Positions 3,001 through 43,700 of a DNA stretch of 64,000 nt are shown in pieces; within the stretch, counting starts at the first letter, position 1, and the number at the start of each line of letters is the position of its first letter. Origin of the DNA: Nemertoderma westbladi (lineage: Eukaryota > Animalia > Xenacoelomorpha); assembly GCA_032718475.1 (NCBI GenBank), contig JAUCBJ010006459.1, positions 1 through 64,000 of the forward strand, in the 5' to 3' direction. The notes under the pieces were generated by a model, which was given only the letters and a program-made list of their open reading frames with translations, did not search any database and was not told the origin of the DNA. Made by a program: the position numbers and the translations under genes.

Positions 3001-4243
3001 GTTGTTGTGCCGCTAACTCCGCTTCCTGTATCGCTAAACGAGCGTTTATTTGTCGCGCCTCCAACTTGGCCCGAGCGTCGGATGCTGCCTTTTTCCGTGC
3101 TAACTCGTCAGCTGCGTTTACCGCCGCAACTCGTGCTAACTCGTCGGCTGCCTGTCGTGCTAACTCGTCGGCTGCTGTCGCCTGTCGTGCTAACTCGTCG
3201 GCTGCTGCCGCCGCGGCCGCTTCTCGCGCTAAGTCCTCCTCCAGTCTCCGCATCTCTGATGCTTCGAACTCAGCCTGTGCTTGAAGTTTCGCAAGTTTCG
3301 CTACATCCTCTCTGCGCTATTTTTCTCCTTCGATGGCGATCTGTGCCATCTGTAGTTGCGCTTCTTCCTCGGCGACTTGTTGTCGGCGTGCAACCTCCTG
3401 TTGTTGTCGAGTAATTCCAGACGCTGTTCTACTAACGTCGCCAACGTTGCCAACGTCGCTCCGTACGCTAACGAACGATCTATCCAGTGGTGGATGTTGG
3501 TAGGCTCGCGAGCCTTCCGTAGTGAGAACTTCCGTCGTCCCTCGCGGTTCGACTTCCGGTTCGTCGATCGGTACGCCGCATCTACGAAGAAAATTGGTCA
3601 GCGTTTCCAACCTTCCGTCCAGGCAGTAGAGTTCTTCTTCCTCTTCGGGTTGTAACAACGCGTCCGAAACTGACTCACCTAGCAGTTGGTCGAACTGCTC
3701 CTGTTGAGCCAATCTTATCACCGACTTAAACTGGATAAGGCTTTCTCTCGCACTTACCAATTTATCTACTATCTTTACCTGAGTAAAGTTGTCGCCACGC
3801 AACTCTGCAAGTTCGTGCAAACCTTCAAGTTTATCTACGGAGGCATGTACCCTACTTTCTATCCTTACCTGTAAGGTGTAGAACTCGTATCTCGACATCG
3901 GGGCGGTTAACTCGCGTAAAACGCGAAAACCTTCTCCGAGGTTCCGAGTAATCTGGGCCATGTGTCCTCCTATACTTCTAATAACGTTCTCCTGGCTTCC
4001 AGTCGAACTTACCATGTCCGGTTCCCGCGATCTAGTCTGCGGGACGGTAAGGAAATCTTCGATTCTGCCGTCGCCACGCGTTGCGGCTTCCGGTATTTCC
4101 GTTCGGGGTACCGGCGACGCAAGCGGTGTGACATCGGTGGAATCTCGGGTTCTCCTTCTCGGTTCGTCTACTGTCGATCTGTCCGGGTCGCACGAGTCAT
4201 AGTCGGTAGGTGGGTATCTCGTCGAATGGGGTGTGTCACTCAT
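59..4243 (-). pseudogene. Gag-protease of element C, frameshifted near 3300 and ending shortly after the protease
   Basis: Two consecutive ORFs match the single N-terminal frame of A. They contain a DUF1759-like gag core, Cys/His knuckles (CWRCMKPGHVRKDC) and an aspartic protease motif (ILDSAS). Confidence 0.88.
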
Positions 4244-6973
4244 GTCTTATTATATACGTCAAGTACGGATAATAAAATGTCAAAGTGTCTGAATGTTGAA
4301 GTGTCAAACTTACCTAACCGGTACAAATAAATCAACAAGTCAGAATGTCGAAATGTCAAAATGTCGAAATGTACAAATGTCAAACTTACCTTGATATATA
4401 TATATATCATATATATACCCTAACCGGTACAAATAAACTAACAAGGTATATAATAAAATAAGTAGTAATCTAGCCTACCGGCTAAATTTGTACGAATAAG
4501 TGAGATAACGGTATACGTTAACAAAATGTAGATCAACAAGTATAAACAATAGGCCAAAACAGCAACGTCTAACGGGAAAATAAGTACCAACAACACTACT
4601 AATAGACAGTGAAACCCACAAATTTTGAGTACTACTGTGCTTTCTTAAGTTTGAACGACGCGAGTCGTAAAACTTACGTTCCTTTGATCTTCCAGTCGTA
4701 CAAATTCCCAAATACAAACCGGACGTGGGTCTTTCCGTTTTTCGGCGGCGCGGACGAATTTATTGTCTCCCAAACTTTGCGAAAAGCGGTCTAATCCTCG
4801 AAGCGGTCCAGAAATGAGTCCTTGAGTCCTGAAAAGGTCGAAGGTGAGAGTTTTACTTCTACGCTTACGAAAAATCTTCCTAGGTACCGATACAAATTGG
4901 TCTTTAAACCCTATGTACCTTTTCAAGTACCGAAAGTAACACCGCACACACACGGCGTAAAACAAAGTGCTACAAACTAACTGTTAGCTAGTCAAAGATT
5001 AAATACGAAAGTACTAGCTACCCTAAAAGCCTACTGAAGCAGGGGACGTTCTAAATTACTAAATTTACTAACCTTAGTTTTTAAATATCTCCTACTTTCA
5101 ATAGCTAACAATCGAAATAATACTATAAACTACGGCGGAAATACTATATACTAATTTATATAAATACTTCCTACTGTAAGGGTCCAGTAGTATACCGCTT
5201 ACCAGATCCTAGTAACGATGTATCTTACTATGAGACTCTAGTAATGTATACGGGCTTGTACAGTATCTGACAACAAATCCCAGTCCAGGATATCTAAACA
5301 AACAGATACAATACACAAACGACTACTGGCGAGGAACAGAGCCTTGTATCTATTCTATGTACGTGAGCGGGTCTAATGCCTACGTACTAGACAGAAGGAT
5401 ACCTGTCCTCTAACCGGTGAGGCAGATGTACAGTTACAGTAACAGACCAAACTCACGGGAAAACAATCCCCGCGCAGCGAATCCTAACTATCACTGACAG
5501 TCCTAAATACAGTAACTTGCCGCGGTGTGATTTATATGGTTTATATACGAGCTAGTGGGTTAACAGACCTAGCGTAACAACACTGACAGTCCTAAATCAG
5601 TCGAAAAGGGGTCGTACCTAAATGTAACAATAACTGATCCCCCTGTACGAAATCAGTCTAAAAGGTCAGGCCTAAATGTAACAATACCGTTGTCCAGACA
5701 AACAACAGTTTAATAACGAAAGTGAAATACTCCTTATTGCCGCAACTAAATCAGATCCTAATTTTACAAATACAGACAATTTCCACCTAAAGTAATGTAT
5801 AGTACGCTATAGCTAGTAGAACTTTAAGGGCAATATGTTTTAGGGCGTGTGTGTGTGGGTGTGTTACAAATAAAACAATTTCGTGTAATTCCTTTTACTA
5901 GGTTTTAGTGATTTTCTGACTAAATGATACCGTGCGCTAGCTACTAAAATAAACTAGTCGCGTTTGTAGAACTTTATACTCACGAATGACGTCAAAGCTC
6001 TCTCCTTCCTATCCACAACCCAATGGGCAACCACAGTGTTAGTAACTACACCCGTGATCGGCACTAATACCAGATTCTGGTTGTAAGATAAGAATAGGGG
6101 TTAATCGCTACCGTACGTTAGCTGATCTGGTATACTAATTTAATTCTAGAACTTTGTTGCTGCGGTAGTTAGCAGCAATACCTATCAGTACGTGGCAAGG
6201 CGCGGTAGGATATTAATAAACCTCCCTAGGCCAAGCAGTGTGCCGGTAGCAGAAATACTCCTTGCCTGATCAAATAGCTAACTCCAGACAGGGGGGGGGG
6301 GGGGGGGGTGTACTAATGTACGTTCTACAAAGCGAACCGGTACCAAACAGTCAGTGCTATGAATCACTAAATTATGGAACATATGCTGTCCGTACCTAAT
6401 ATGTACTCGCGTACTGACGAATGGCAATAGTTCGCACCTGTAGGAAGTACAGGTTTTAACCCAGGGATTCGTAGGACTTGACAAAGGGGGGGGGGGGGGG
6501 GGTTGTCTGGATATAATTATTTGATCCTAAATTTGCGGCGTCCAGTACGGTGTCACGCTTACCCTGATCTATAGGTCTTACGGCGGGCAAGGGCGTCGAA
6601 CAAAGTCTTACCTTCTCACAAAGCGGGCGCTGCATAGCAAGTGGAGTATTTCGAAGGGGCAAAGGGGGTGCGCGGTCGATCCAATGTGGGCGCTAGCGTG
6701 TTGTGGACATCCCTTCCCTGCGTTGCTTACGGCCTAACGATCTAGGCTGCCATCTCCCTGACGTTCGGCTGTCCCGAAGTAGGACCAAAGGAAAACATGT
6801 CAGGAATTTGCAGTATATTTACAGTTTTACAAAAGGATTTATCAAACGAAGTTTCAACAAGAAACCGAATAAACTAATTTTACAAAAGTAAGAGTTTTAC
6901 AAAGTGGTAAGAAGTGACATAATATAAGGTGTGTGTGACGTGATAACAGGTAATAACGGAAGGCAAACCGGCC

Positions 6974-7220
6974 TTTTATACTAGAAATTGCACATGGAAA
7001 CTAAACAGAATTTTCCACAGCTTCACCATTGAGCAATGAAGTGCTTCGTGCCCTATGATTGGCCCAGCTCATCGTTCAACGCAGTCCGGCCCTTACACTA
7101 ATCTGGGACATGGAATCCTAACAGAATTTTCCACTGCCTCACATTTGAGCAATAAGATAATTTATGCCCTATGATTGGCCTGGCTCATCATTCGCTACGC
7201 TGTACGCTTCTCATTGGCCT
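6974..7220 (-). promoter_or_regulatory. Pol II promoter in LTR C: duplicated ~115-bp unit with CCAAT and GAAnnTTC motifs, TATAAAA at 6980-6974
   Basis: A direct repeat at about 6991-7075 and 7107-7190 carries GAATTTTC and ATTGG in each copy. A third ATTGG is near 7213. TATAAAA reads on the minus strand. Confidence 0.6.
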
Positions 7221-7253
7221 ACCAATTAGCACCACACGAAAATAAATGGCCCC

Positions 7254-7343
7254 AAAATACAAATTTCCCGACTGGGATTCGAACTCGTAACCTATGTAAT
7301 GCACTATGTACTTTAACGCCTTAACCATCTGACCACTACGCCA
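7254..7343 (-). ncRNA. tRNA-like Pol III cassette (A box, B box, T-run) in U3 of LTR C
   Basis: The minus strand reads TGGTCAGATGGTTAAGGC ... GAGTTCGAATCC ... TTTT. The acceptor stem does not pair. Confidence 0.6.
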
Positions 7344-7599
7344 CGAGAGTACCTAAGGGTTTTATGTGTACAAATATGAATAGGCATATTACATTACTGT
7401 AGCTCAATCAAAATACGTCGGATTTTCGAAAGTTTTTACGTTAAAGTTAAACTACAAATGCTATCTTATAGTGAAATAATTCATCACCACGGGGTTAATG
7501 TTGACCCCCCACCCCCCCCCCAAACAATTGCTCATAAGAGTAGCTCTACTACTAGTATCGGCATGCTGCATTGCAGCTGCATTTTTAAGAATGCTGTGC

Positions 7600-7814: not shown

Positions 7815-7925
7815 CTAAAGTGCCTAGTTGAGCGCCGGTCCTGCAATCTATTGGTTGTAGGTTAAACCCCGCCAGGTTCCTCTCAGCCTTTCAACCACTG
7901 GGGTCGATAAAATGAGTAGCAGTTA
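7815..7925 (+). mobile_element. tRNA-derived SINE fragment with conserved central domain
   Basis: A degenerate B-box (GGTTAAACCCC) is followed by TCAGCCTTTCAACCACTGGGGTCGATAAAATGAGTAGCAG. This resembles the central domain of widespread metazoan SINEs (Meta/Nin-type; recalled, not searched). Confidence 0.45.
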
Positions 7926-7944
7926 AAAATTACTGGAAGCAAAA

Positions 7945-9008
7945 CTTGGGATAGGAGTAGCGCCCACCCCTACCTTCGGGTAGCAGATAGGAGTAGCGTC
8001 CACCCCTACATTCGGGTTGCAGATAGGAATAGCGCCCACCCCTACCTTCGGGTAGCAGATATGAATAGCGCCCACCCCTACCTTCGGGTAGCAGATAGGA
8101 GTAGCGCCTACCCCTACCGTCTGGTAGCAGATAGGAGTAGCGCCCACCCCTACCTTCGGGTAGTAGATAGGAGTAGCGCCCACCCCTACCTTCGGGTAGT
8201 AGATAGGAGTAGCGCCCACCACTACCTTCGGGTAGCAGATAGGAGTAGCGGCCACCCCTACCTTCTGGTAGCAGATAGGAGTAGTAGCGCCCGCCCACCC
8301 CTACCTTTGGGTAGCAGATAGGAGTAGCGCCCACCCCTACACTCGGGTAGCAGATAGGAGTAGCGCCCACCCCTACACTCGGGTAGCAGATAGGAGTAGC
8401 GCCCACCCCTACCTTCGGGTAGCAGATAGGAGTAGCGTCGACCCCCTACCTACGGGTCACAGATAGGAGTAGCGCCCACCCCTACACTCGGGTAGCAGAT
8501 AGGAGTAGCGCCCACCCCTACCCTCGGTTGGCAGATAGGAGTAGCGCCCACCCCTACCTTCGTGTAGCAGATAGGAGGAGCGACCACCCCTACCCTCGGG
8601 TACCAGATAGGAGTAGTGCCCACCCCTACCCTCGTGTAGCAGATAGGATTACCGCCCACCCCTACCTTTGGGTAGCAGATAGGAGTAGCGCCCACCCCTA
8701 CACTCAGGTAGCAGATAGGAGTAGCGCCCACCCCTACCCTCGGGTAGCAGATAGGAGTACCGCCCACCCCTACCTTTGGGTAGCAGATAGGAGTAGCGCC
8801 CACCCCTACACTCAGGTAGCAGATAGGAGTAGCGCCCACCCCTACCCTCGGGTAGCAGATAGGAGTACCGCCCACCCCTACCTTTGGGTAGCAGATAGGA
8901 GTAGCGCCCACCCCTACACTCAGGTAGCAGATAGGAGTAGCGCCCTTCCCTACCCTCGGGTAGCAGATAGGAGTAGTAGCGCCCGCCCACCCCTATCTTT
9001 GGGTAGCA
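7945..9008. repeat. 36-bp minisatellite (GCAGATAGGAGTAGCGCCCACCCCTACCTTCGGGTA)n, about 29 units
   Basis: Head-to-tail units with point variants are directly visible, with no unique spacers. Confidence 0.95.
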
Positions 9009-9519
9009 GCTATCGAGAGAGGAGCCTTTGGGTCGCCTCTGGCTTCGGTCTACTTGATTTTTTGTTAGAAATATACATTATACAGATCTGCGCATTTAAT
9101 AAGGGTGTACTGTACATGTGTTCATGGACTGTTATTTTGCACTCCCCGCCAACTCCTTTTTTCTAGTATCTACTATCAGACTGTGACCGTAGATACTTGT
9201 TACTACTGTTAATGTACCATACACTGCAGTACTGGCGCAATGGTGCTCAACAGAACCTGCAGCCCTACAACAACCCTGGGTACTGGTATATTATAATATT
9301 GTAACAATGAATAATTCTGATATTAGTTGATTTAATTATATTAATTACACTAAACCTGCATATTGGCATATAAATAAAGTAAAATTTTTTGCTTTGTCGC
9401 TTATTCAATATCCAATGAAAACAAAAGATATTGAAAACGTGTGAAATTAATGTTGACATAAATACTTTCTACTAACTATCATTCTTTATTTTAATATTTG
9501 TATTATTTTATAAAATTAG

Positions 9520-9717
9520 GTGTTTGTGGTTGATAGTGTTGATGCTTCTGACCTCAGTAATTTGGCTAACAACACAGACAATATTTGTGGTTCAGTCGAA
9601 GTTACGGCCGTGCAGAGTATAGACTGCAGAGGGAAACCTGGTCGTTATGTCGTTGTGTTCCAGGGCGGCGACACACCCCTGACGCTCTGCGAAGTCCAAG
9701 TGTATCCTCCACAATAG
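9520..9717 (+). CDS. Terminal exon of a host gene with an F-type lectin (fucolectin/FTP) domain C-terminus
   Basis: A T-rich tract and AG acceptor lie at 9518-9519. The translation includes CGS...C.GKPGRYVVV...LTLCEVQVY and a TAG stop, the typical end of an FTP domain. Confidence 0.72.
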   Translation: MFVVDSVDASDLSNLANNTDNICGSVEVTAVQSIDCRGKPGRYVVVFQGGDTPLTLCEVQVYPPQ

Positions 9718-10299
9718 ACACAAAAGTAGCTACAGTACAGTAGGGTATGAAGGAATTGAATATTCTATTCACTGTAGTGACTATCTATATGGTCGTGGGA
9801 TAGTATTTAATGTTAACGGTATGATAATTCTCCAAACAAATACATTGCCTTCCATTAGAACTTCAGTTTTCTGTGCCTTGAACTCACGTCCTTCATCTTA
9901 GAAGACCAACACTCTAACCAACTGAACTTATGGTCGCCAAGAGTGGTGAAAGATGTACCAACTGACATGTAAAAGAACATATAATAATAATCAATCACCA
10001 CAATGATAAACCAATCGTTAAATACTGAATACTGCTAAATATAATATCAATAGTCAATAACACCAGACCGATATCCAATTATTGTTCACACCTCTACATT
10101 ATTCCTGTGTTTCGAGCTGCCTCGATACAAAGTTTCCTGACAAAACCCCCATACATACTCTTACAGTAAGCAACTTCCACAATAACTTATATTGCACAAG
10201 TATGTGGTTACCAATAGAAAGTTGTTTGCCTCTATCAAGTATACAATGTATTGAACAATTTGAACAATCAATCAATCACATGATTTCGGAAGAGCTCTT

Positions 10300-18616: not shown

Positions 18617-18742
18617 TATAGAATTATATTCCCTAAATGCCGTGGATTTTCAAAATTTGATTTTATTCGGATTAACTTTGTAAAGATTGCTTTGAGTTCT
18701 CATTCGTATTGGTTCTATCATTTGTACATCTATCGGTCAAGT

Positions 18743-18829
18743 GGTTCAGTAGCTCAGTCGGTAGAGCGTTGGAAATTATATGTGTAGTAGGTGTTGAGTT
18801 CGAATCCTAGTAAGTGCGAATTATTTTTT
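18743..18829 (+). ncRNA. tRNA-like Pol III cassette in U3 of the A 5' LTR
   Basis: TAGCTCAGTCGGTAGAGC (A box and D arm), GAGTTCGAATCC (B box, 18796-18807) and T6 at 18824-29. There is no acceptor stem or normal anticodon arm. Confidence 0.7.
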
Positions 18830-18879
18830 GTACAGAATTTCAACTCATTTAAATTAACCGCTACAAATTAATTGCATTT

Positions 18880-19060
18880 ATCTGTACCAATGAGACTGTA
18901 GTTATTTGATTGTAACCAATGTCGTGCAAGTTATATATTAGCTGGACCAATAGCTATCTTTAAAACCCCGTTAGAACCCATAGAACAATCGAGAATTTTC
19001 TCGATTGATTGCGGCACAAATTTGCTATATAAAGGTGCGATTTGTTCATTAGTTATTCAC
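18880..19060 (+). promoter_or_regulatory. Pol II promoter of LTR A: three CCAAT boxes, HSE-like palindrome, TATATAAA at 19026-33
   Basis: CCAAT at about 18887, 18916 and 18947; CAATCGAGAA-TT-TTCTCGATTG at 18986-19007; TATA box followed by TTAGTT about 20 nt downstream. Confidence 0.65.
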
Positions 19061-21340
19061 TTCTACTTCACAGATTATCTTATCAATATTCTGTTGTGCT
19101 TAGTTTATTTCAGATTACATTGTACATATTATTATAATCTTCTGTAATAAAGTCAGAATATTCTCTCAGCTTTTCTATCTGTTTTACTATGGATTCACTA
19201 CGGTGAACTAACTCAGGGACAGGATGGCCGGCTAGAGATCGGGCCGCAGCAATGAACGGGAACATCACGGGAATGTAGACGAGAGACAACCCGCAATACC
19301 ATTTAGAGTTATTCGCCCATCGCCTGAAAGGTTAGACAGCGTTCGATCCTTGCTACCTAAGTGTAAGACCAAAAGATCAAAAGGTAGACGTAGTGACACG
19401 CTGTAAGCCCAAAATTACATCATAGGGACTGTACTGTCTTGATTCAGGAAAACCCACAGTAGACCTTCACATTCCTACGGGGGGGGGGAGAGAGAGCGCA
19501 GGCAGATACTAGTACGCAGATAGGACGTAGGCACACCGGTACAAGGCATACACATTGGTTAGGGTGCAGCAAACTGTACGCTTAACTCTTGCTAAGTACA
19601 GGTGCGTGTGCGACTATTTGCAGTACGACAGTGTCCATTACATCAGAACTTGTAGGCTAGGGGGTTGCTGTGTTTTTACCTGAATTGGGATTGTACCGTT
19701 CGGGCGGTAGGGCAGTTTACGTACTAGGCGCAAATAAATTGAGGCTATCAGGGATATACTAACATCTACCGTGTCCCCGCCAACGCCCTAATAGGAAGTT
19801 ACCCGGACTACCTGGGTGACTAAAATTCTAGATAGGAGCCAGGATAGCTATTAGTACCTGTACGCCTACAGTAGTAAACTAACACATCTCTTCTTAGTAT
19901 CAGGGACCTGGTACCTAAAATTGCCGAATTCTGGGCGTAGTATTAACCTTATGCCTGAATTTGAGTCCTGGAAATACGCAAGAGGGGAAGGAACCTTATC
20001 ATTCGTGAGTATTGGACCTACAAGTTACAAAATTAGAATATTCGTAAATGCACACCGTACCCAGTAATTATATATGTGAAGGAGCAAAACTGTTTTGACC
20101 GTTCAGAATTAACACGCGCGTTAGAAATTATTTACACCTCGAAATATATAAAATTAACTTTTGTCCGTACTGTGCTTTGCCCGCTAGTTAGACATCTCCA
20201 AATCTCTGCCTGTACCTAGCTAGCGTCTCTTTGCCCAACCATATAAATCACACCGCGGCAAGGTATACGAGCCTCTTAGTCCGTCAGTGAGTCAGCCTGA
20301 TTTTAGGATTCGCTGCGCGGGATTTTGTTTTATCGAAGTTTGTCTGCTCGTAGACTGTTTTCTGCCTCACCGGTTATAAGAGATCGATACTGCAATATAT
20401 TCGCTTACTTAGTTTATTGTTTTGGTGAGAAGGTCGGATTTATGATTTGATTTACAAACTTTACAGTAGGATATTGCAGGTATTGTTACCGTCTCTTCGC
20501 ATAGTAGGAATAGGCGTATCTCTTCAATTAGTAGGAATATGTTTTACTGAACTACGGTTCGGTAGGACTAAAGTTATTTGAAAATTCTGTATTTTGAGGT
20601 AAAAATTTGTATTTGATTAGCTAAGTGCTAATTTTTTGAAATAAAATTTGATTTGAACCGCGTGTAAAATATTTTTGGAATTGAATACCGGTGTTTTAAA
20701 AGGGTTTAAATACCATATTGTACCGGTACAAAATTTTCGTAAAAGTAAAACCTAACTCTTTTGTTTTTTCAGGATTCAGAACTCATTTCTAGACTGTAAC
20801 GGGAGCAAGACCGTGTTTAGCAAGTTTGGGAGATAGATAACTCAACAACTTTGGTTGGGAAAATCGCGTTTCGTCCGCAACGTTAAAAACGGAAAGGTTC
20901 ACGTCCGGTTTGTATCTGGGAATCTGTTTTTCTGGAGAATTATTGGAGTGGGTGAGTTCGAAAAGTTGCATAAATAAGTTAGGCATTACCGTATTAGTTA
21001 AAAATTATTGTGGGTTCCACTGTCTCAAGTATTTATGCATTCCGTATGATTTCTTTGTTCATTGCTGAATTAGTCCGTATTATTGTATTTAATTTACCTT
21101 TTGATAACGCATATCGTTATCCGAATTATTTGTTATAAAATTGGCCGCTAGGCTAATTTTATTATATACTTATTCCGTGACATTTATTTGCTGTAAAATT
21201 GGCCGTTTAGGCTAATTTTATCCATCTGCTATAAAATCGGCCGGTAGGCTAATTTTATAAGACTGTAATTAGTACCGTTTAGATAAATACGGTAAACTCG
21301 ATACTTTGACACTCACTTTACTTGACTTACAACTACCGAA

Positions 21341-24300
21341 ATGAGTGACAAACAAGACTATACGAAAAATACACAAACCGACTATGACTCATGTGACGCG
21401 GATAAGTCAGCAGCGGAAGAACAACAGGGGAAGACTCGCGAGCCTACCGAACCTACACCGTGTGCATCACCAGTACATCCAACGGGAGTACCGGATGCCG
21501 TAGTACGAGGCGACGGCAGGACCGAGGACTTTCTAACTGTTCCGCAACCTAGATACAGGGAAACGGAAATGGTAAGTTCAGCAGGAAGCACAGAAAGTGT
21601 GGTTAGAAGCGTCGGTGGATACATGGCGCATATAACCAGGAGTATTGGAGAAGGCCAACGCTTATTAGACGGGTTGACCGCTCCGATGTCTCGATTCGAG
21701 TTCTACACCCTCCAGGTTAGAGTGCAGAGTAAAGTATATAAGTCCGTAGATAATCTAGTTGGCCTACAAGATCTAGCTAGACAGAGACAGGACATGGATA
21801 CTCAACTTAGAATCCTCGAGAAACTAATGATCACTAGAGAGAAACTGATTCAGTTTAAGTCGACGATTAGACAGATACAACAGGAACAAGCGGACCAGTT
21901 GTTAGGTGAGTCAGTTTCGGACGAATTATTACAACCCGAGGAAGAACAGGAACTGTACCGACTGGATGGACAATTGAAACATCTGACGGACCACTTACGC
22001 ATGTGCGGCGAGGACGTCGGAGATTGGGAAACCGTGCCGGAGGCTACGAGGGAAACTTCACTCGCACAAATCAAACCGGTACCGGGAACACTAGATCAAT
22101 CACTGGTGAGTATTCGCAGCGAAATTGGCGAGGTGAGTATGGCTACGTCAGAAATTGCTCGACAACAGCAGATCTACAGACAACAACAGGAGTGGGAGGA
22201 ACAAACTCAACTCATAATGGCACAAGCAGCAGCAGAAGAAGAGAAACTACGCGTTGCGAATGTTGCGAGAATCTCTCACCTGCAAGAACAAGCTGAGTTG
22301 GAAGTAGCCAAAATGGAAAGGTTAGAGTTGGACATTGCACAACAAGCGGCAGCGGCCGAGTTAGCGCAACGAACGGCAGCGGCCGAGTTAGAGCGACAAG
22401 CGGCAGCGGCAGCGGCAGCGTCCGAGTTGGAGCGACAAATGTTAGCTTCAGAAGCGAGAACCGAAATGAAAAAACGGCAAATAAAGGCTCAATCAGCGAT
22501 ACGACAAGCGGAGTTCGAGGCGCAACAACAACAAACGGAACAACGCGAGAAAGAAGTTAAACTTCGTTTCGAACTCGAGAAGAAGGCGAGAGAATTAGCC
22601 AACGCCAAGGAAGACCTGGATCTACAAGCCCGCGATCGATCGATGAGATCTCGAGACGGACATGATTTAGACCGGTTGGAGGTAAGGCACCGCCAAATCC
22701 AGGAACGAATGAAGGAAGGTTCGATAGGAGCACCCGGACGGGAACGACAATTAGTAAAAGACTTGTGTCAACGATTCCCACAAGTAAATCCTATGTTTGC
22801 ACCAGTTACGACTAAGGAACCTGTTTCGATTGCGGGTAGTAGTAACATTTCTCCTATCTATGGTGCGACGGAACACAGGTTTGTTATTCCGGACGAGTTT
22901 ACACCGCCAAGAGCAACGTCGTCGCCTATTCCGAAGGTCAAGGTAAGTAACCCGCCGATTACAGATCGTAGTAGTTTATTAGTCGGACCTGCACTACTGA
23001 CGACTAAACAGGTGAGTCCACCTCTGACGCCACAACCTGTTACACACTACGCTTACCCAATGACGTTTCGACCTACAAGGCCAGTTGATTCAAATGCTGT
23101 CATTCGCCCACCGGTTCAGTTTACATCGCAATCTACGACTTCAAGGAAGACTTGTGAGCCTACCGAACAACGGAGAACAGTGGATATGCGACCGTTCAAC
23201 CAGTTTGCATCGCAATCTACGACTTCGAGGAAGACTTGTGAGCCTACCGAACAACGGAGAACAGTGGATACGCGACCGTTCAACCAGTTTGCATCGCAAT
23301 CTACGACTTCGAGGAAGACTTGTGAGCCTACCGAACAACGGAGATCAGTGGACGATGTTCCAAAGCAAAACGTTAGAATTCGTACGACGCAACGGACGCG
23401 AGCACGTCGACCACCGTATCCAGGTGACAGTAGTACTTCGAGCGAGTCGGATTACCCGGAATGCGAGGTATTTAGAACAGGAGCGGCCGACAAATGTAAA
23501 CGTGAGCGTTCGGATAATTCATTTATCGACAATCCTCCACAGAATACACCAACACAAAAGGCGTTACAACCAACAGACGCGATCAGTACACAACAGTTCG
23601 CCGACATCCTGCGACCAGTTGTTAACAAGTTGGCTCAGATCGAGGAACGTCTAGAGGAAGGTTATACCGACAGTTCGAGAAATTCCGAATTCGAACACAA
23701 TAGACACCCGAAGGAACCACAAAGACCGGTACCTTCAAACCCCACATCGTATCAGGGAAAAGCGCCAAGAAGGGATATCAACAAGGTTACCAACCAAGGA
23801 CGCGAAACTCTGAACGTTGCAGAGGAGATAGCGAAATTCGCAGCCAGACAGGGATTGCCGGTACAACAACCACCGAAGTTTTCCGGTAGCTCAAAACACT
23901 GGCATACTTTCGTAGACTATATCGAATCCCAGATCGCTGTGTGCGCCTTTACATCACGGGAGAAGTTCAATTACCTGCTCCAAACGTTGTCAGGAGAACC
24001 TAAACGTTTGGCGGAGACTTTCGTCGGTGTACCGGACGCTTTCGAACTAGCGTACGATCGTTTAACTTCGATATACGGAGGTACAGTTAGTATGGCCAGG
24101 TCAGTAATAGAGGAACTCTGTAAGGGAGGGGCTATCACTAAACCCGTCGACTTACTAAAACTAGCTGACGAGATCAAGAACGCTATCACTACCTTAAGAT
24201 CAATTGGACAACTTGATTACGGGAATACCCCTACAGTCCTATTAAAGATAATAGGACGACTCCACCATCGACTTCGTCGGGAGTGGAGGAAGGTCGAATA

Positions 24301-27300
24301 CCAGCGAGAAGAGCGGGGAGGATTCTTAAAATTAGAAGATGTGTACCTTTTAATATCCAAGGAGGCAGTAGTAGAAACTAGATCTAACTACACCGACCAG
24401 CACATCGTGGCAGAAGGAATCACACTGCCATCCTCCAACCGACAAAAACCCCAGACAACATCCACTAAGACGGCCACTTACACCACACCGACGGAATCAC
24501 GACAATTCTCGGACGGAGGTAGGGTATCTGCGCCCATTGGGACAAAACAAACGAGACAGCAACTTGGTACCGACTTCAGTGGCTGCCAATACTGCGAGCA
24601 TCTAGGTAAGCGGTATATCGGTCACAAGTTACGAGGTTGTCGACAATTTCGCGAGTTGAACTCGGAAGAACGACGGCTGCAAATACGGCCACTGGACTCT
24701 TGTTGGCAGTGTACGCGACACGGACACGTCCGTAAAGATTGCCCAAATACCGACACTTGTCCATCCTGTGGACGCAACCACGACGGTCTGCTCCACACAG
24801 ACAGCCACACGCCGACAAAACGCTTCGCCAGGGAACACCCGGAAGCAGCAGCGAGATGTGATGCGGCCTATAGAAAACGAGAATCGAAAACGACTCCAAC
24901 CTTCGTGACCCATATTGAGGATTGCTTCTCAGAACAATCCGGATCGTCGGACGAAGAATCAGAAGACGACGAATATTCCAATGGAGACGAACAACCGTCG
25001 ATCGCGCTTCTGACCACTGACCAACTGAAGGGATTCAGTGTAATCCCGATTAAGATCACTGGCACAAAGGGGAGTAAGAGGATCTACGCGATTCTAGATT
25101 CAGCCTCATCTCATAGCTACGTGGATGAAAAGATAGCTGACGTAGTGACGGATCTTAAACAAGGTAAGCATGTCAGTTATACAGTAAGTAGTATGCACGG
25201 ACAGCGTGCAATACCAGTAACACGAGTTAAGTTGGACTTAGACACTCTTCTTCCGAAATCGCAACACAGCGAGAGGGAGAGGTCTTTGTTGCCCTTTAAA
25301 GATCTAACCTTTGCGGCCACGAAGGACTTTAGTAACCTACTAGGTCCAGTGCCGGAACAATCTCTAGAGGACCGTAAGTATTTCAGACACCTTGGTGTAC
25401 CTGAATGTCCTGTCAATTATAGATCGGTAGCAATGCTGATCGGGACAGACCAATTCAACCTACATCAGGTGTGGGAAACCAGACCATCGGCAGTTGTAGC
25501 GGGAAACGCATACGCCTGCAGAACGCCGATAGGGTGGTATACTCGAGCGCCTGTGCGCACACTAGACGTAAGTGACGAGGAAGACGATGTACAGAGTACA
25601 TGTAGTTTATTAACTACAAATTCAATTCATTCCTTCTCACACGACGTGAACCATACTACACTACAGTCGACAAAACATAACAGACGTGTAACTAGTATGA
25701 TAAGTCACAAGGAGCAGCTAATTCACCAGGTGAGTTTAGAACTTGGGGAGAAGACGAGTCAGCTAGAGATTCCATCGACGACAGATGATAGGCTTGCGAG
25801 TCTACCTACCCCAATAACCTCAACAGTGCCCGTCGAGATCGATGATGACGCGTTGAGAAATCATCAGTTGGAACAAGCTGTACTAGACAAGGAATTAACG
25901 GAGAAGACTATCAGGTGGTTAGAACAAGATACAGCTGAACCTGGTAGCTACGAACCTTGTATGTCGGAACAGGAGAAACAATCTCTGAAGATCATGGAAG
26001 ATACTATCCACCAGACGAAAGACGGACATTATGAGGTAGGGATGTTATGGTGTAGCCAAAGTCCTAAACTCATAAACAACTATCCACTGGCTTTAAGACG
26101 TCTACACTCAATACGGCAACGTCTATTAAAGGACGAGAAGGCCCATCTGCAGTACAACACTCAGATGGAGACGTATTTGACTAAGGGATACGCTATCCGA
26201 ATGACTAACCCAGAGATAGAGACTGACCAGACATACTACCTGCCACATCACTATGTGAGACATCCCGACAAACCAGATAAAGTACGCGTAGTCAACGACT
26301 GTGCGGCTCTGTTTGAGGGAATGTCCCTCAATAGTGAGTTGATGGATGGACCAAACATGAATAATTATCTTATGGGGGTGATTATGCGCTTCCGTCAGCG
26401 TCAAGTAGCTTTTACTTGTGACGTTGAAGCGATGTTTCACCAAGTGAGAGCGTTAGAGCGAGACAGAGACAGTTTGCGGTTCCTCTGGTACCCGGAAGGA
26501 GACTTAAGTCTACCACCGGCGACTTACCAAATGCAAGTTCGCGTTTTCGGTGCCAGAGACAGCCCAAATTGCACGATGTACGCCCTAAAGCAGGCCGCTA
26601 GGGATCAGAAACACCTGTATGACCCAGAGATAATTAGGATTGTGGAGCGTGACTTTTATGTAGATGACGGTTTACAGAGTTGCGACACAGTAGAACGTGC
26701 TACAACAGTAGCACATCAATTACGGGACTGCTTAGCGGGCGGAGGTTTTAACCTCACCAAATTCGCCTCAAACAGTGCCGAATTAGTAGACTCATTCGGG
26801 ACGACTGAGCGTGGAGGTGGTGACATAGACCTAGAGTTCGAACCACTACCGACGACTAAGGTGTTGGGGCTCTTTTGGGACCCAAACACAGACAACTTTC
26901 GAGTGAAAGTGAGACTGGACAGTCAAGAGAACACACTGACAAAGAGATCATGCTTGTCAAAGTTGAGCCGATTGTTCGATCCGTTAGGATTCATCAGTCC
27001 AGTGATACTGCAAGCCCGCATTTATATGCGCAGTATATGGAAGGATGGAATAACATGGGATGAGCCGATCTCATCAGACCAAGTGGACTTATGGAAGACC
27101 TGGGAGGCGGAATTATCTTCGCTAGAGGATTATTCCATACCCAGGGTTTACTTTCCATTACAAAGTACATTTCCTGACAACTTGGAACTACACTGTTTTT
27201 CTGACGCCAGCGACAACGGTTTTGGTGTGGCAGCGTACTTGCGCAGACAAGTAGAATCAGACGAGTTCGATGTTTCGCTCATTACTTCTAAGGCTAAGAC

Positions 27301-30033
27301 CATGCCTACTAAGTATATGACGACACCACGAGCCGAGCTACAAGCCGCAACCCTGTCAACCACCATCGTGAACCTCATACAGACAGAACTACAGTCGAGT
27401 TTACAGATATTTTATTGGACTGACGCGACGTTGGTTTTATTTTACATAAACAACGACACACTCGAATTCAAGACATTCGTTGCTAACCGTCGCGCGGAAA
27501 TTCTAGACCGTTCAATAAAAGGGGATTGGCGACATTGTCCCGGACCACAAAACCCAGCTGATATTGCGTCGCGAGGAATGATGCCTGAGGAATTCTGTAA
27601 ACCGGAGAACAAAGAATTTTGGCAACACGGACCCCAGTTCTTGCAGAAATCGACACAAGATTGGCCTCCGTTATACGACAACAAATCTAACACTATCCCA
27701 AAGGACGCCGAAATCAAGAAACCAAAAAAGGGGAAGACAAAGAAAAGGACGACGGCGGCAAAACTCAAGAAAAAACCGAAGGCGAAATGGAAAGATATAA
27801 CTTCAAAGGTCAAGAGAGGAAGACTTGCGAGCCTTTCTACACCAGACATATCGCCAGACGGTCAACCAGACGCGTTACTAGACGGTCAACCAGACATTCT
27901 ACCAGACACTAGTGACATACTGACAAACAGTAAAGCCGCAGTTTCCCTATTGGAGCGGCCTTCTATTGACAAACAACCAGATACGTTACCAGACGTATCG
28001 CCAGACACATTACTAGACAGTCGACTAGACATTTTGTCAGAAACATCACAAAATGTTCTACCGGACATTAGTAATTTATCGACTAACAGTAAAGCCGCAG
28101 TTTCCCTATTGGAGCGGCCTTGTATTGACAAACTACCAATTTTGACACACTTGAGCAACCATAAGCACGGTGAAACCTCATGTATTACAGATGTGGGTAG
28201 TACCTACGCTAATGTAAATACAGGTGTTACTTTGCGCTCAAGAGACATACCGAACTTGCAACCTATGGTGAAACCTGGGATTAATATCGGCAGAAAAATT
28301 AGTTTACCGAAACCCACTGATCCCATAGAGTTCAAACCACCATTAACGATCGACTTACAAAGTACCGACAATCAAGGTAAGAAGACAAAGAAGGACAAAT
28401 TACTTGTAGACCCGGACGGATCAACAGTCAACAAGGGAATACCTACCGGCGGACCCGTGGGCCCTTCTAGTAATTCAAAACCTTCCAAAATCTCAATTGA
28501 CTTACCTGATGACGTCACAAATACTCATGTCGACCGTATTGTAAACCTAACAGATTCTTGGACAAACGCTTGCCGAAAATTAGCGTGGATTGTACGTTTT
28601 GTACAATACGTTAAAGGCAAACGTGACTTTACACGTCGACTTACATTGACTGAGATTGACAGGTGTGAAATTAAATTAATTCGCCATTACCAACTGCGAT
28701 ATTTCGCGCGCGAATTCACATCTATAAATCAAGGTCAACCAATCAAGTCGTCACCAATACTGAGTTGGAGTCCGATTATTTATAATGGCTTAATTTGTCA
28801 TAAATCTCGGCTTCAAAACATTGACTTTAACACAAACTTTAGGTACCCAATAATAATACCGCAACACCACGAACTACAACGTGCAATGATACTGGACGCA
28901 CATCTACATCTGAAACACGCTGGAAGACACCACTGTCTTTCCTACTTACGTACTAGATTTGTATTAATTTGACCCAGTAAAGCATTAAGTTCAGTGACAC
29001 GTACGTGTATTATTTGTAAAAAGGTACATTCTAGAATAGGTACCCAAGAAATGAGTGAACTACCACAAGCACGACTTCAAGCATTCAAACCACCTTTTAC
29101 AGAGACGGGAATTGATTGCTTTGGTCCCATACATACGAAACGTGGACGTATACTAGTAAAACGCTGGGGACTGATTTTCACATGTATGTCCAGTAGGGCA
29201 GTTCACATTGAACGTGTGATGGATCTTTCCACCAACGCGTTTATACTAGCACTGCGGCGATTTATTGCTAGACGCGGACTAGTAAAATGCTTGTACTCAG
29301 ACCAAGGGACAAACTTCGTTGGTGCTCGGAATGAGATTGCTAGAGCCTTTAAGAAATTAGATCATGATCAAATCTCGAACGAACTGCAACCTCACAAGAT
29401 TGTTTGGAAGTTCAATCCTCCAGATAGTCCTTGGAGAGGCGGAGTCTGGGAGAGATTAATTAGATCTATAAAGACAGCCATGGCAAAGGTCATTCCAGTA
29501 AACCACATATTAACAGACGACCAACTGACAACATTGTTGAAATCGAGGCAATACTAAATACTAGACCAATAGTATTAGTACCCGATGACAAACAATCTCA
29601 ATTTGCTTTAACACCAGCACACCTGCTAATGCAGGCACCGACTACTTTGACGCCGATTTCTATTCCAATAGAAAGCGACAGCTACGGTAGAAAAGCGTGG
29701 AAAATCACGCAACTACTAGCTAACAAATTCTGGGAAATATGGCAAAACCATTATTTGCCCTCTATTTCTGCCAGAACAACTTGGTACAATAACACCCGCG
29801 CATTAAAGCCGGGAGATCACGTGCTGTTGGCAGAAGTGAATCTAAAAAGACGCTTCTGGATAACAGGTGTAATTTTAGCCACACATCCATCTATGGATGG
29901 AGTGACAAGAACTGTGACGGTACGGACAATTGACGGTCGTACAGTAGACAGACCGACTCAACGTCTCGTACTTCTTGAAGAGACTCGTAACGAGTCTGGA
30001 GACTACAAATCTCCACCTAATACTAGTAAATAA
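21341..30033 (+). pseudogene. A gag-pol polyprotein (Gag, PR, RT, RNase H, IN); nonsense at 28970 and 4-bp deletion near 29535, both in the integrase region
   Basis: A 2543-aa ORF plus two downstream pieces. Motifs: ILDSAS, FYVDDG, FSDAS...RAEL...WTD...NPAD, H..HAG..CIIC, DCFGP, SDQGTNF, GGVWERLI and a GPY/F-like tail. The lesions are defined by comparison with A'. Confidence 0.95.
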
Positions 30034-30700
30034 TTAGGAGTTTACAAATAGATTTCCACGTACCTGTACACTGTAGTAAGGACAGCGGTGGGATTCCATT
30101 GTCTTTATATGTGAACATTGAGGGTAGTACCCTTATGTGTCACATAGGAGCGGGATTTGTAGGTATAAGAAATGTAATTCTACTTGGAACTCACAATATT
30201 GAGACATTTTTGAAATTTTAGACAATCCATTTGGATTTGAAAATTTTTAAAAATTTTCTCCAGTGAATAGATTTCAGGGTACAGTCGGGTGGAACTTAAA
30301 ATTAGAGAAACAAGAGAGGAAGACTTGCGAGCCTTTCTTAAAAAAAAAATTTTTTAATTAAATTTTACACGGTCTTGTTTCAATAAGTTACGTCGAAATA
30401 GACTCCCCTATATTTATTACTAATTCTTGATTGCTTATTTTCTGATAATAGTTTGGGATCAAAAGGTGAGTATTTTAGACTCACAGCCAGTTTAGCCCAA
30501 ATTCGTTTTTATTTCGGCAAAAAATTTTAGATAAGAAGCAGCGTGTCATTAAAGAAACCTTAGATCTTAGGCTATGGGTAGGAGGTTAGAGCGTTGTCGA
30601 AGCCCAAAGGGCAGACGAAACTCTCACGTCTCCTCACAACTAACTACAAACTCTGTTGTATTCCCTCTAGTAGTAATGATTATGTAACTACACCCTAATT

Positions 30701-33700
30701 ATGGAGAAAGGGATACAAGGAGAGCCGAGATGGGGATATGATATCCAAGAGGAGGCAGCAGCGCCATTCGAAAGATTTGGAGCCAAGGATTATACTATAT
30801 TTGGTATAAAAGAATTATCGGAAAGTACAGCGAAACTCGTGAGAACTAAATATGACTCGAACGTATTAAAGAGAAGGCAAAACGCATTAAACGAAAGAAT
30901 CGAAAGTTTGCGCCAAACCTTCAACGAACTTTACCCGTACGATGCTTTGTGTGATACGGGAGACATTAGCGAAGACCCCGATACTGAAATTAGTCGTTTG
31001 TATCATACCATGCAATACCTAAAGGCGCATGAACCTATGCCCGCGGTACGCGATGAATTCGATGGAATGCATCTTTACAGACGAACTCGAGGGGACGATA
31101 GAGAAACCAAGGAAGCATTTTCAGTTTATAAACTTTATTATCAATGCGGTTCTTGTATGCGCGAACAACGAAATGCGATTCCGATGCGTTTGAATAAGGA
31201 AAATCCCGAACCGATATTGGCGAGGTGTTCGAATCATCAACAACTACGCTACCAGGAAGGAGGGTATCCTTTATCGAATCCATATCATTCATTTGCTATG
31301 ACCGGACCAAAGGCGGGAGAAACTGTCATTTACCCACCTAAGGTTGTTGAACCCGATGTATTTGAACTTACGCTGGACGAGGCGAATCAGTCAACCCGCG
31401 AAAAGAAAGAAGCTCTTAGCCTATACAGAGCCTACAAGGCTTTCGAGAAAGGTGAGATGGAAGAATGGGGTGGAAGACTCGCGAGCCTACCTTGCCATTG
31501 GACGTCACACGATCAAACTTCAGCTAAGGAGATGACACCGGAAGTTTTCGAGAGCATAAACTTTGCTCAAAACGTTATTCAGAGACTACAGATTGCATCC
31601 CCGGAGAGGCCAAGAGAAATGCAACCGTATAGTACTTCAACTACGAAACCATTGAGTACGACACTCAATTTCCCTATTAGTATACCAGTCCGACAGGATA
31701 CGACGTACGAAATACCCATCGTGGATCATCCAGAAATCATTTCAAACTTGGAGTTTCTTCCTGCAGTTGTTTTCAGCGATATGAGTAAGATATATGATTT
31801 ACGTAGACATATTACTCAAAAGGTCGTGCACAACGTTCCACCTCATATTCAAGATTTCAAGGAACTGGATAGAGCTGGTGCCGACATAGCTCCAAGTAAT
31901 CTGAAAGGATATCTAACCAAGACGATTCGTTTATGGATTGGAACCGGAACCTTCGAGTCGGATACAGATATTGCCGCAGATTGGCGAGGTAAGGTTATTC
32001 GTTTCGATGAGGATAAGGATATAGAGAAGATTTGGCAACCTTCGGAAGAATTGTTGGATGAATGGACTAGGACGTTTAGATCGTTTCAGGAAAACGGTTA
32101 TATGTTTTACGATAACGAGGGCGGCAGTCATCAGCAGAGTTTGACTTCTAAGACTATACAAATTAGAGCGGCGGACGGAGTCCTGCACGTTTTCAGTAGA
32201 CAGAGGAGCGACAAACGAATGCCGATACCTCCAGCGAATACAAAGCGACACCATCTTATCACCGATATAGTAAAGAAGATGGACCAAGCCTGTAATATTG
32301 ACGCTAGAATGCTACCGAAGATGGTAAGAAACATGATTTTAGATAAAACTGTTGTAAAGGTTGGATCAGGAGTAAGGGAGGATTTAATTAGCGACTTCGC
32401 CGGCATGACGGACAGCGATGACCGACTACCGACACCATACGTCGACACTCGACCTCTTATTCTGTGGTCTATAGAACAGGGATATTTTCGTGAGTATAAT
32501 ACTCAGAAGACTGGAACTGGATACATTTCCTACCTGTTATTCAATTGGGATTATAAGGAAAATAAGAGAAACAAGTATATTGAAACTTATGGAGAAGGTG
32601 ATACTCCAGATATGAGTGAGTTTGAATCACAGCTTAAATGGAGAGGATGCATGTATTGGGCTATTACGTCACCTCCAAGAGCGGTCTTACAATATTATTT
32701 AGCGATAGAGTCGTCAGTGAATGTTTGCCTAATCGCCGACATTGTGTCTCGGACTCTCAAAAGACATCCACTTTGTCTCGGAGAAGATCATACGTTCTAC
32801 ATGGAAGGGAGAATTCGTACCGACGTGTTTAGACGATTCCTTGAACCCTTCTACAACTCCGACGCTCAGTGTAATGCCTTTACTCGAGCAGGATTTAGCA
32901 TATTTCGAGACGTGTATCTTCGCTGTGCGGGATCTCTTATCGAAAGACCATCTATGTTTACACTGTTACCCAATGAAGGAGAACGTATCGTGGAAATTAC
33001 GGATGAATCACGGCAGACGCGCGCGCCTATCGGTCACCTTGGTGATGAATTCGAAGTAACTACTACGATCGCCGACGATCCTTTAGAGGAACTTCTTGAG
33101 ATAGAAAGGAACCTCCCGAAGAAATCTCAGACGGAGATTCGACAACTTGAAGCAACAGATGCTATAGTTTGTATACAACCTTCAGAAACCTACCAACCCA
33201 TAGACCCAGATGATTACGATTATAGTGTGGGAGGAAGCGCTCGACCGATTGGAGATCTTATATATGAACGAGTGTGGTACCCTGCGAATACGATGTGTAG
33301 TAAATGTGGCGTCGCTGGACATCATATGGCAAAGTGCAGTGGAAAGCACATTACTACGACTCAGCTAATCTGTGGATGGTGTGGGGATCAAGGGTCTCAT
33401 ACCTTTTATACTTGCTGGAGATTTATGGCCCAATGTACTTATTGCAATATAAAGGGACATCGAGCATCTGAATGCCAACTAAGGGACATACCTTATGAAC
33501 ACGAATCTGTAAAACTCGTGAGGAAGTTATTTGATGAGTGGGAAGATTTAGCCGACGAACATGTATCAGCACAAAGAAGACGGTTTCCGTTGAGAGCGCA
33601 TCTCGGATTTTGGGCGGTAAATCCCCAGACGATGATGTCGGAAGGATATATCTCCGCTATGCCCCAATATGACGAACTTATCGAGGTTGTCGATATTTTG

Positions 33701-34426
33701 CCCCACGACAGCGGATTCCGAGTGGTGCGCGAGTATCTGTTACAAATTCACCCGGATAACAAAAACACGTGGAATTTTCAGAAAGTCGTTAATCGGATTA
33801 CGTATGGTGAATTCGATCGTTTCCGAACTGAAAAGCGGAACAAGGGAGCTTGGTTAACCGTCGCATGGGCGTACCGAGCCGCGTTTTACCACAAACGTAT
33901 ACGAGCGAGCGTATTCGAGGAAGAAGAGGTCCTAGAGGCGACAAATATACCAGCCACTCCGGTTGCGCCGTCTGCACGTCACCCTCGGGAGGACGGGCAG
34001 GGTAGGATCATACGGGTCCAAAAGGTGGGCCAACAATTAAAGAAAATTATTAATGTAGAAGAACGCAAAGGAGTTGAGCCGACTATTCGAGTTACTCGGG
34101 ATACGGTATCACTTCCAAGAGAACCAGTAGGAGGGTCGGGACATACACCAGCTGATCAACAGGGGGCGCAAGCTACTCTTGGGTCTGCGTCGTCCGCTTC
34201 TCGCGCGTTCCCAGACGTTCTACCAACTGTAGTGACGACTGATCGGTCACGAGGAATCGGTCGAGGTTTTGGGATGCTAAATAAACGAATTTGCGAGGAA
34301 ATAGTCGCACCGTCTCTCAACGTCCCAAGTAAACCAGTGACTCGCCCCACAAGTCCCATATCGCGAGCAAAGTCACCTGTGCGCAGTTTTCGAGGACGCG
34401 GCAGGGCTCGATCCACTAAGCGATAA
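30701..34426 (+). CDS. Accessory ORF2 of A (1241 aa): DEDDy 3'-5' exonuclease-like domain plus three CCHC zinc knuckles
   Basis: Intact ORF in the env position. FYDNEG (ExoI DxE), LPKMVRNMILDKTVVKVGSGVREDL (ExoII, WRN/EXD-like), YVDT and QYYLAIE (ExoIII-like). Knuckles: CSKCGVAGHHMAKC, CGWCGDQGSHTFYTC, CTYCNIKGHRASEC. Confidence 0.8.
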   Translation: MEKGIQGEPRWGYDIQEEAAAPFERFGAKDYTIFGIKELSESTAKLVRTKYDSNVLKRRQNALNERIESLRQTFNELYPYDALCDTGDISEDPDTEISRLYHTMQYLKAHEPMPAVRDEFDGMHLYRRTRGDDRETKEAFSVYKLYYQCGSCMREQRNAIPMRLNKENPEPILARCSNHQQLRYQEGGYPLSNPYHSFAMTGPKAGETVIYPPKVVEPDVFELTLDEANQSTREKKEALSLYRAYKAFEKGEMEEWGGRLASLPCHWTSHDQTSAKEMTPEVFESINFAQNVIQRLQIASPERPREMQPYSTSTTKPLSTTLNFPISIPVRQDTTYEIPIVDHPEIISNLEFLPAVVFSDMSKIYDLRRHITQKVVHNVPPHIQDFKELDRAGADIAPSNLKGYLTKTIRLWIGTGTFESDTDIAADWRGKVIRFDEDKDIEKIWQPSEELLDEWTRTFRSFQENGYMFYDNEGGSHQQSLTSKTIQIRAADGVLHVFSRQRSDKRMPIPPANTKRHHLITDIVKKMDQACNIDARMLPKMVRNMILDKTVVKVGSGVREDLISDFAGMTDSDDRLPTPYVDTRPLILWSIEQGYFREYNTQKTGTGYISYLLFNWDYKENKRNKYIETYGEGDTPDMSEFESQLKWRGCMYWAITSPPRAVLQYYLAIESSVNVCLIADIVSRTLKRHPLCLGEDHTFYMEGRIRTDVFRRFLEPFYNSDAQCNAFTRAGFSIFRDVYLRCAGSLIERPSMFTLLPNEGERIVEITDESRQTRAPIGHLGDEFEVTTTIADDPLEELLEIERNLPKKSQTEIRQLEATDAIVCIQPSETYQPIDPDDYDYSVGGSARPIGDLIYERVWYPANTMCSKCGVAGHHMAKCSGKHITTTQLICGWCGDQGSHTFYTCWRFMAQCTYCNIKGHRASECQLRDIPYEHESVKLVRKLFDEWEDLADEHVSAQRRRFPLRAHLGFWAVNPQTMMSEGYISAMPQYDELIEVVDILPHDSGFRVVREYLLQIHPDNKNTWNFQKVVNRITYGEFDRFRTEKRNKGAWLTVAWAYRAAFYHKRIRASVFEEEEVLEATNIPATPVAPSARHPREDGQGRIIRVQKVGQQLKKIINVEERKGVEPTIRVTRDTVSLPREPVGGSGHTPADQQGAQATLGSASSASRAFPDVLPTVVTTDRSRGIGRGFGMLNKRICEEIVAPSLNVPSKPVTRPTSPISRAKSPVRSFRGRGRARSTKR

Positions 34427-34499
34427 AAGGGAGGGCAAGGGTGGACGTAAGACTCGTGAGCATTTCTTATGATTTGTGATTTATTTTGAATTATATGTT

Positions 34500-35060: not shown

Positions 35061-35280
35061 GAATTTAATTTAGATTTATATTGTACTTACTTAGTAAAGC
35101 CTTAAATACGTAAAGTTTGAATTTGTAATTATTTTGTATCGAATCATTACGTAGAAAGGAAGTATTGTTTGAAATTTAATTGTAAATATGTAAGTACGCC
35201 CTAAGTATTCTATAGTTTAATTGATTATTGGTGAAAACCGTATATTTTATGCACGATAATATCCTGTTTTCATGGAGCGG

Positions 35281-37204: not shown

Positions 37205-37209
37205 TTGAA

Positions 37210-43597: not shown

Positions 43598-43700
43598 CCA
43601 CCTTGGTGTAGTGGTTGCGTTGAATTCACATCTCCCATAGTTCATGGGTTCAAACCCCGCATGGACCAGGGCAGATTTCGTTCGGTCAGCAATAGGCCTA
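43598..43700 (+). mobile_element. tRNA-derived SINE-like head
   Basis: A box TGGTGTAGTGG and B box GGTTCAAACC at tRNA-like spacing; no cloverleaf. Confidence 0.45.

Follow-up and report, generated by a model that had tools for sequence, protein, structure and literature searches.

Introduction

Pol III transcripts are known from the LTRs of Drosophila mdg1 and of Moloney virus. Pol III promoters of LTRs have been reported from tiny, gene-less elements, as their sole promoter, and from retroviral miRNA cassettes. The closest described system is Helenus (TRIMp3; Kojima 2024, PMC10886601), for which the sections of that paper drawn upon here describe tRNA-derived sequence in both LTRs, conserved boxes A and B without a functional tRNA fold, no primer-site match and, often, a T-run just behind. 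The locus described here resembles Helenus in each of these respects. Helenus elements, in contrast, are non-autonomous and 311–1263 bp long, Gypsy or Copia mobilise them, and the unit, close to their LTR's 3' end, is their presumed only promoter, whereas here it occupies the 5' end of U3, and its carrier is an 18.6-kb Bel/Pao element that encodes gag-pol and an extra ORF and keeps its Pol II motifs. It is a Helenus-like Pol III promoter whose carrier has no need of it as a promoter. Membership of Helenus/TRIMp3 itself was rejected: the boxes are in the LTRs, but the element is not non-autonomous, protein-free and about 1 kb long or less, nor, as judged at the sequence level, is its genomic RNA likely to be a Pol III product.

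The original prediction for this locus cited Cassandra and foamy viruses as analogies and missed Helenus, with its tRNA-derived LTR promoter. Cassandra and Ajax TRIMs have likewise captured an internal Pol III promoter with conserved boxes in their LTRs, but theirs is 5S-derived (type 1), the elements are non-autonomous and the promoter makes the genomic RNA, as summarised in PMC10886601. Foamy virus cassettes, which also belong to an autonomous element, have an A box, a B box and a terminator within the U3 of its long LTR, and their short transcript is separate from the Pol II genome, as proposed here (PMC3993851, in the parts consulted). This analogy holds for position and promoter type; it fails for the product, as foamy virus cassettes make stem-loop or dumbbell miRNA precursors, while the unit here is without a long hairpin and keeps a tRNA D arm. 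The TMERs of gammaherpesviruses are also tRNA-like Pol III units in a parasite genome that are not working tRNAs; they differ in belonging to a DNA virus and in having a full tRNA-like fold followed by miRNA hairpins (PMC4337559, in part). Host tDNA and ETC barriers act through A and B boxes, via TFIIIC, next to Pol II promoters and silent chromatin, like the mode proposed below (PMC7990762 and PMC4228148, in the portions used). Those are host loci of demonstrated activity, whereas the unit here is mobile, is present in every new insertion and has a presumed activity.

According to the Helenus paper, autonomous partners should rely on Pol II promoters, without such shared LTR sequence; it also states that not a few Repbase LTRs bear a likeness to part of a tRNA, and its analysis covered only elements below 1000 bp, so autonomous cases outside that range may exist (PMC10886601, in part). 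A literature search that included passages of PMC554778, PMC3286476, PMC3601003, PMC3118150 and PMC1874656 did not turn up any autonomous Bel/Pao element reported to have a tRNA-type promoter in U3; the sequences of the 7,861 Bel/Pao elements of PMC3118150 may hold further cases.

The family A element and its LTRs

The window, i.e. the whole stretch of 64,000 nucleotides that was analysed, comes from an animal and consists of nested Bel/Pao LTR retrotransposons. The closest relatives in the RT region are 39–44% identical, the named ones being from molluscs, echinoderms, a nemertean and cnidarians. Family A is represented by a complete element of 18.6 kb (18617–37205), inserted in the RT of a Bel/Pao element of family B. 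Its gag-pol domains, its paired LTRs and a 5-bp target duplication flanking the element on both sides place it in Bel/Pao. In the gag-pol of this copy there is a stop at 28972, and the frame changes near 29500, in the integrase. The coordinates of the features are collected in Table 1.

Table 1. Features of the Pol III-type units and of the elements that carry them
Feature	Position	Strand	Remarks
Family A, 5' LTR	18617–20531 (about 1915 bp)	+	99.3% identical to 35281–37204; 4 substitutions in 1915
Second A-box-like motif	18742–18752	+	One mismatch; overlaps the main A box; motif scan
A box	18750–18761	+	With a 4-bp D stem; A box/D arm spans 18750–18767; motif scan
Spacer	18768–18795	+	In place of anticodon and variable arms; without tRNA fold
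B box	18796–18807	+	12/12 nucleotides the same in family C
T6, predicted Pol III terminator	18824–18829	+	No contig variant among those listed falls here
Pol II motifs, family A	18887–19033	+	CCAAT at 18887, 18916 and 18947; TATAAA at 19028; motif matches only
AATAAA, predicted polyadenylation signal	19146–19151	+	R region
Bel/Pao gag-pol	21326–30033	+	Pfam PF05380, PF03564, PF18701
Extra ORF, 1248 codons	30680–34426	+	CCHC zinc knuckles (PF00098); possible 3'-5' exonuclease domain (Atlas lead)
Family A, 3' LTR	35281–37205	+	Carries the same Pol III-type unit
Unit of the family A 3' LTR	A box 35414, B box 35460–35471, T6 35488–35493	+	
Third family A LTR	49331–51231	-	95.9%
Unit of the third family A LTR	51098–51019	-	A box 51098, B box 51052, T-run 51024
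Family C gag-protease region	59–4265	-	68% nucleotide and 57% amino acid identity to family A
Family C, U3 of the LTR	6975–7486	-	TG start at 7486; CCAAT at 7217, 7178 and 7062; TATAAA at 6980
Homologous unit of the family C LTR	7254–7343	-	A box 7343–7333, second A-like motif 7335–7325, B box 7286–7275, T4 7257–7254

The family A LTR begins and ends with TA (18617, 20531, 37205, 49331) instead of TG...CA, while the LTR of the sister family C starts with TG. A 27-nt duplication at the 3' end of the family A LTR distinguishes its copies. U5 is very long (about 1.35 kb; 19200–20531) and has blocks in common with family C (6800–4400, minus strand), one of them an exact match of 26 nt at 20237/5541. 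A possible splice donor is located near 19330 and a possible acceptor near 20772, and there are small UNCG-type hairpins near 19196.

The Pol III-type unit of the family A LTRs

A motif scan of the window located the A box with its paired 4-bp D stem, the B box and the T6 run in three of three family A LTR copies, as originally predicted. In the third copy the D loop differs by one change and the spacer by two; its boxes are otherwise intact. The scan used A and B box patterns that we take to be the consensus. With the strict pattern the pair of boxes appeared in one of 5000 dinucleotide shuffles of the 1.9-kb family A LTR, and with a loose pattern plus a T4 run at most 40 nt away in eight of 5000. 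Over the whole window there were four strict matches: the three family A copies and a minus-strand site (7343) that belongs to the family C LTR.

The sequence characters of a type 2 Pol III unit are present: boxes with zero mismatches in both families, tRNA-like spacing and a downstream T-run. The distance from the A box to the B box is 48 nt in family A and 59 nt in family C; TFIIIC tolerates differing distances between the two boxes. The family A unit is set 133 nt into the LTR, with the TATA box 221 nt downstream. It is in U3, as proposed before, provided that the CCAAT, TATA and AATAAA motifs are those used by the element. The predicted family A RNA would be approximately 85–95 nt long, a length that is a prediction only.

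The first 217 nt of the family A LTR (18617–18833), which have a CA end directly behind T6, resemble a complete Helenus-type LTR preceding an ordinary U3. A short motif from the start of the LTR reappears at 18814–18826. The Helenus-type appearance of this stretch is possibly a trace, if a weak one, of how the unit was gained.

The family C counterpart

The unit in family C was not part of the original prediction. In four of four sequencing runs contig cover stops at 7486–7488, and loose contig ends at this point match the motif that precedes the family A 3' LTR; together, these observations place the start of the family C LTR and show the unit to be part of a multi-copy LTR. The zero-mismatch A box is found 143 nt inside this LTR, and T4 follows 18 nt beyond the B box. 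In both families the two boxes lie 130–150 nt inside the LTR and 220–295 nt upstream of the TATA box, and a second A-like motif is offset by 8 nt from the main A box. The two main A boxes differ in sequence, each fitting the consensus perfectly. A pair of A and B boxes arises in 0.05% and 0.13% of U3 shuffles, while a nearby T4 arises by chance at 10–17% of U3 positions.

Conservation and variation of the unit

Families A and C agree at 106 of 305 fourfold sites of the gag-protease region (35%), i.e., their silent sites are nearly saturated. The B box, by comparison, is identical at all 12 positions and constitutes the longest exact match between the two U3s. For a position fixed in advance, twelve identical bases at the fourfold rate would have a probability of about 3 × 10−6; when any position in the U3s is allowed, 31 of 1000 shuffles yield a 12-mer common to both. 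Alignment of one unit to the other scores 77, against a shuffled mean of 42 (none of 1000 as good), and blastn of one U3 region against the other returns the unit alone (E 0.027). Nothing in U3 is better conserved than the B box, but this does not extend to the whole LTR, as the conserved blocks of R/U5 are longer (26 nt). Neutral decay of the boxes, the outcome that was to speak against a function, is not what we observe in this comparison of two families from one genome: the boxes have been kept while silent sites were nearly randomised.

The spacer behaves differently, and between the two families it is unalignable. In family C (32 nt) it contains 8 of 31 substitution sites where 3.3 are expected (P 0.01; contigs from four runs and three samples) and nine of the twelve indels listed, while the 37 box nucleotides contain a single variant site, at less than 1% of depth. 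The family A spacer is not enriched among the variants listed (P 0.44); contig variants are present at 18793 and 18795, together with a variant in which the spacer is shortened. Loose contig ends reveal subfamilies that join other spacers to the same B box. Within families, the boxes are not significantly poorer in variants, with 1 seen against 1.5 expected among the 21 family A U3 sites listed (P 0.56) and 1 against 3.9 expected in family C (P 0.08).

These within-family results for the boxes are compatible with a neutral or nearly neutral relic, in which a SINE head or a piece of a Helenus-like LTR entered U3 and the likeness between families A and C reflects a recent swap or two captures, not selection. 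Retroelements readily recombine, and a SINE-like head resembling the family C unit is present in the window: it has A and B boxes but no T-run and is situated just outside the family B 3' LTR (43604–43656, plus strand). Its alignment with the family C unit scores 54, against a mean of 33 (none of 500 shuffles as good), and it may be related to the source of that unit. A recent swap, however, would have left the whole unit alike, whereas the A boxes differ while fitting the consensus and the spacers do not align. There is no tail behind the T-run, and contig depth, in itself a weak measure, is flat across U3 and over the unit no higher than over the LTR start; a depth not raised over the unit is unlike that of a free, high-copy SINE at 80% identity. 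We regard the relic as quite improbable. On the reading preferred below, the unit was likely captured a single time, from a tRNA gene or a SINE head.

Structure of the predicted RNA

The expectation that the unit is not tRNA-like, and that a tRNA finder would return a pseudogene or nothing, was borne out. ARAGORN finds no tRNA gene in the window. Against the Rfam tRNA model the family A unit scores 11.7 bits (cut-off 29; E 8.5), with only its 5' end and D arm aligned, and the family C unit has no tRNA match in Rfam. To the acceptor and anticodon arms, already described as not tRNA-like, the T stem can be added, which is likewise not properly paired. A tRNA gene, for which a cloverleaf with acceptor, anticodon and T stems is needed, was rejected on these results, and a functional tRNA, a miRNA hairpin, a vault RNA and a Y RNA were rejected with nothing near the Rfam cut-offs. 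Folding z-scores of the predicted RNAs are between −0.4 and −1.2, no better than those of shuffled sequences; with neither a long hairpin nor a dumbbell precursor in the unit, a retroviral type of Pol III miRNA cassette was also rejected. The RNAs of families A and C are predicted to fold differently, and in the consensus fold of three sequences the covariation term is only −0.44, with 5 of 14 pairs broken in family C.

These folding results bear on the possibility that the product is what matters: an abundant, tRNA-like Pol III RNA of 85–100 nt serving in trans as a decoy that draws off small-RNA or RNA-surveillance proteins of the host, in the manner of VA, EBER and TMER RNAs. There is precedent for such a role (PMC4337559, as far as cited here), and the kept terminator and partly kept D stem are equally expected of a functional RNA, which counts against a role of the DNA alone. 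Folding at the level of shuffles, folds that differ between families, broken pairs, a hypervariable spacer and the lack of a pre-miRNA hairpin are not what such an RNA would lead one to expect, and we consider the decoy unlikely. A spacer free to change and no conserved fold are the pattern of a promoter and not of a structured RNA; selection appears, from these sequence comparisons, to act on the promoter rather than on the RNA product.

The site behind the 5' LTR

Pairing of the 3'-terminal 25 nt of the family A RNA with the 20 nt that follow the 5' LTR is no better than that of shuffled sequences (38% of them as good), in agreement with the original statement that the 3' end is not complementary there. 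The site is, moreover, not a TGG-type primer site. A junction A|GT is found behind the 5' LTR in family A (20532), in family B (12298) and in several marine Bel/Pao loci.

The missing TGG site would be explained if the short RNA were the element's own primer for reverse transcription. A 12-bp helix is possible between the 5' part of the family A RNA and 20544–20555, ranking 45th of 3712 windows. This helix begins 13 nt from the LTR end, while the RNA 3' end is left unpaired, and it has no counterpart in family C, where the aligned site ranks approximately 420–510 of 1492 (placed by alignment, with the LTR end not fixed). Lack of a TGG site and a CA|GT junction are also common to family B and to three metagenome loci (L040, L055 and L063), all of which are without the unit. 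Section 3.6 of the Helenus paper reports no such match in Helenus either (PMC10886601). Taken together, a role as primer is hardly probable at all.

Distribution

Family B has no such unit in the window, as judged by motif scan. Among 78 more distant Bel/Pao loci from metagenomes, 29 of which have a terminal repeat and 21 of which were judged by eye to hold a whole LTR (some of the same family), the strict pattern was found nowhere (0.25 expected) and the loose one three times (3.6 expected), in each case inside the element and never at an LTR. The unit is therefore lineage-specific. An exact search of the metagenome contigs with the LTR-start motif of families A and C returned no match, a shorter version returned six viral loci of unrelated context, and a search for RT in viral contigs gave 0 of 39. 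Targeting of tRNA genes by insertions was rejected as well: the family A copies lie inside the RT of another Bel/Pao element and inside a LINE ORF, in a window without tRNA genes.

Possible function

Neither of the reasons for which LTRs are known to carry Pol III promoters applies here, and the conservation of the boxes therefore calls for a third use. Between the two functions originally proposed, a small regulatory RNA and a TFIIIC-bound insulator, a spacer free to vary and a fold that is not conserved make the latter, at the level of DNA, the better fit and the former the poorer. We propose, with a probability of slightly more than one half (about 0.52), that the unit is kept as a DNA platform for TFIIIC, TFIIIB and Pol III upstream of the Pol II promoter of the LTR. 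TFIIIC would bind the A and B boxes in U3, and Pol III would transcribe about 85–100 nt up to the T-run, short of the CCAAT/TATA region; this RNA would be largely a by-product. The benefit would be a nucleosome-free, barrier-like site that keeps the Pol II promoter both open and shielded in repeat-dense chromatin; the platform would also stop read-in from flanking DNA, and full-length genomic RNA would still come from Pol II. The portions of the literature used here describe tDNAs as nucleosome-free and, in a manner conserved from yeast to human, as barriers that depend on intact A and B boxes (PMC7990762), and Pol III complexes as stopping read-through and altering neighbouring Pol II promoters (PMC4228148, PMC9703767). 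It counts against a platform that the element's own genomic transcript could meet a Pol III complex in the 3' LTR and be hindered by it.

The promoter might instead work as in Helenus or Cassandra and make the RNA that is retrotransposed, either that of the element itself or that of a short non-autonomous derivative with the same LTR end. The LTR anatomy is the same, and in many fungal Helenus LTRs a T4 can be seen by eye just behind the tRNA-like part (PMC10886601, Data S1). Here, T6 follows right behind the B box and 79 further runs of T4 or more come between it and the 3' LTR, making Pol III an unlikely maker of the genomic RNA. The unit, besides, belongs to an 18.6-kb coding element with CCAAT, TATA and AATAAA downstream and stands at the 5' end of a 1.9-kb LTR, against a position near the 3' end of a Helenus LTR of 120–320 bp (as given in the consulted part of PMC10886601), and no short derivative was seen in the window. 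We consider this mode highly improbable.

If the unit were a self-carried TFIIIC barrier, as in the platform reading, it would offer a testable answer to how young elements stay active amid silenced repeats. A transposon would then spread insulators at high copy, and the finding would bear on the origin of Helenus-type LTRs.

The extra ORF and other features of the window

The extra ORF occupies the position of env but shows no sign of it, and a second copy is found at 52104–55762 on the minus strand. Nothing in Pfam matches its middle domain. Look-alikes of this domain in the Atlas are 3'-5' exonucleases of the DNA_pol_A_exo1 type (PF01612 clusters; 0.92, 24 of 30 matches), a lead only towards an exonuclease-like domain. 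Two length-limited searches returned no sequence homologues of the ORF, there was no match in the PDB and the single-sequence fold, with a pLDDT of 31.5, is too poor for use. A literature search found no exonuclease accessory gene in Bel/Pao.

More speculatively, and with little probability, the element might carry an anti-silencing kit in two parts: a tRNA-gene mimic in each LTR, acting as a portable TFIIIC/Pol III barrier and as the source of a decoy RNA, plus a zinc-knuckle protein resembling 3'-5' exonucleases. LTRs of this kind, and not insertions of SINEs into TRIMs, could then be the source of Helenus-type promoters, and the host genome would gain two insulators with every insertion.

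Tandem arrays are present at 7842–9121 and at 39537–40144, with a 36-nt unit and with mixed 36- and 62-nt units; the second is within family B, where it separates pol from a further ORF. Between the elements, at 9470–9720 on the plus strand, there is a short exon-like stretch that we take to resemble an F-type lectin or F5/8 domain.
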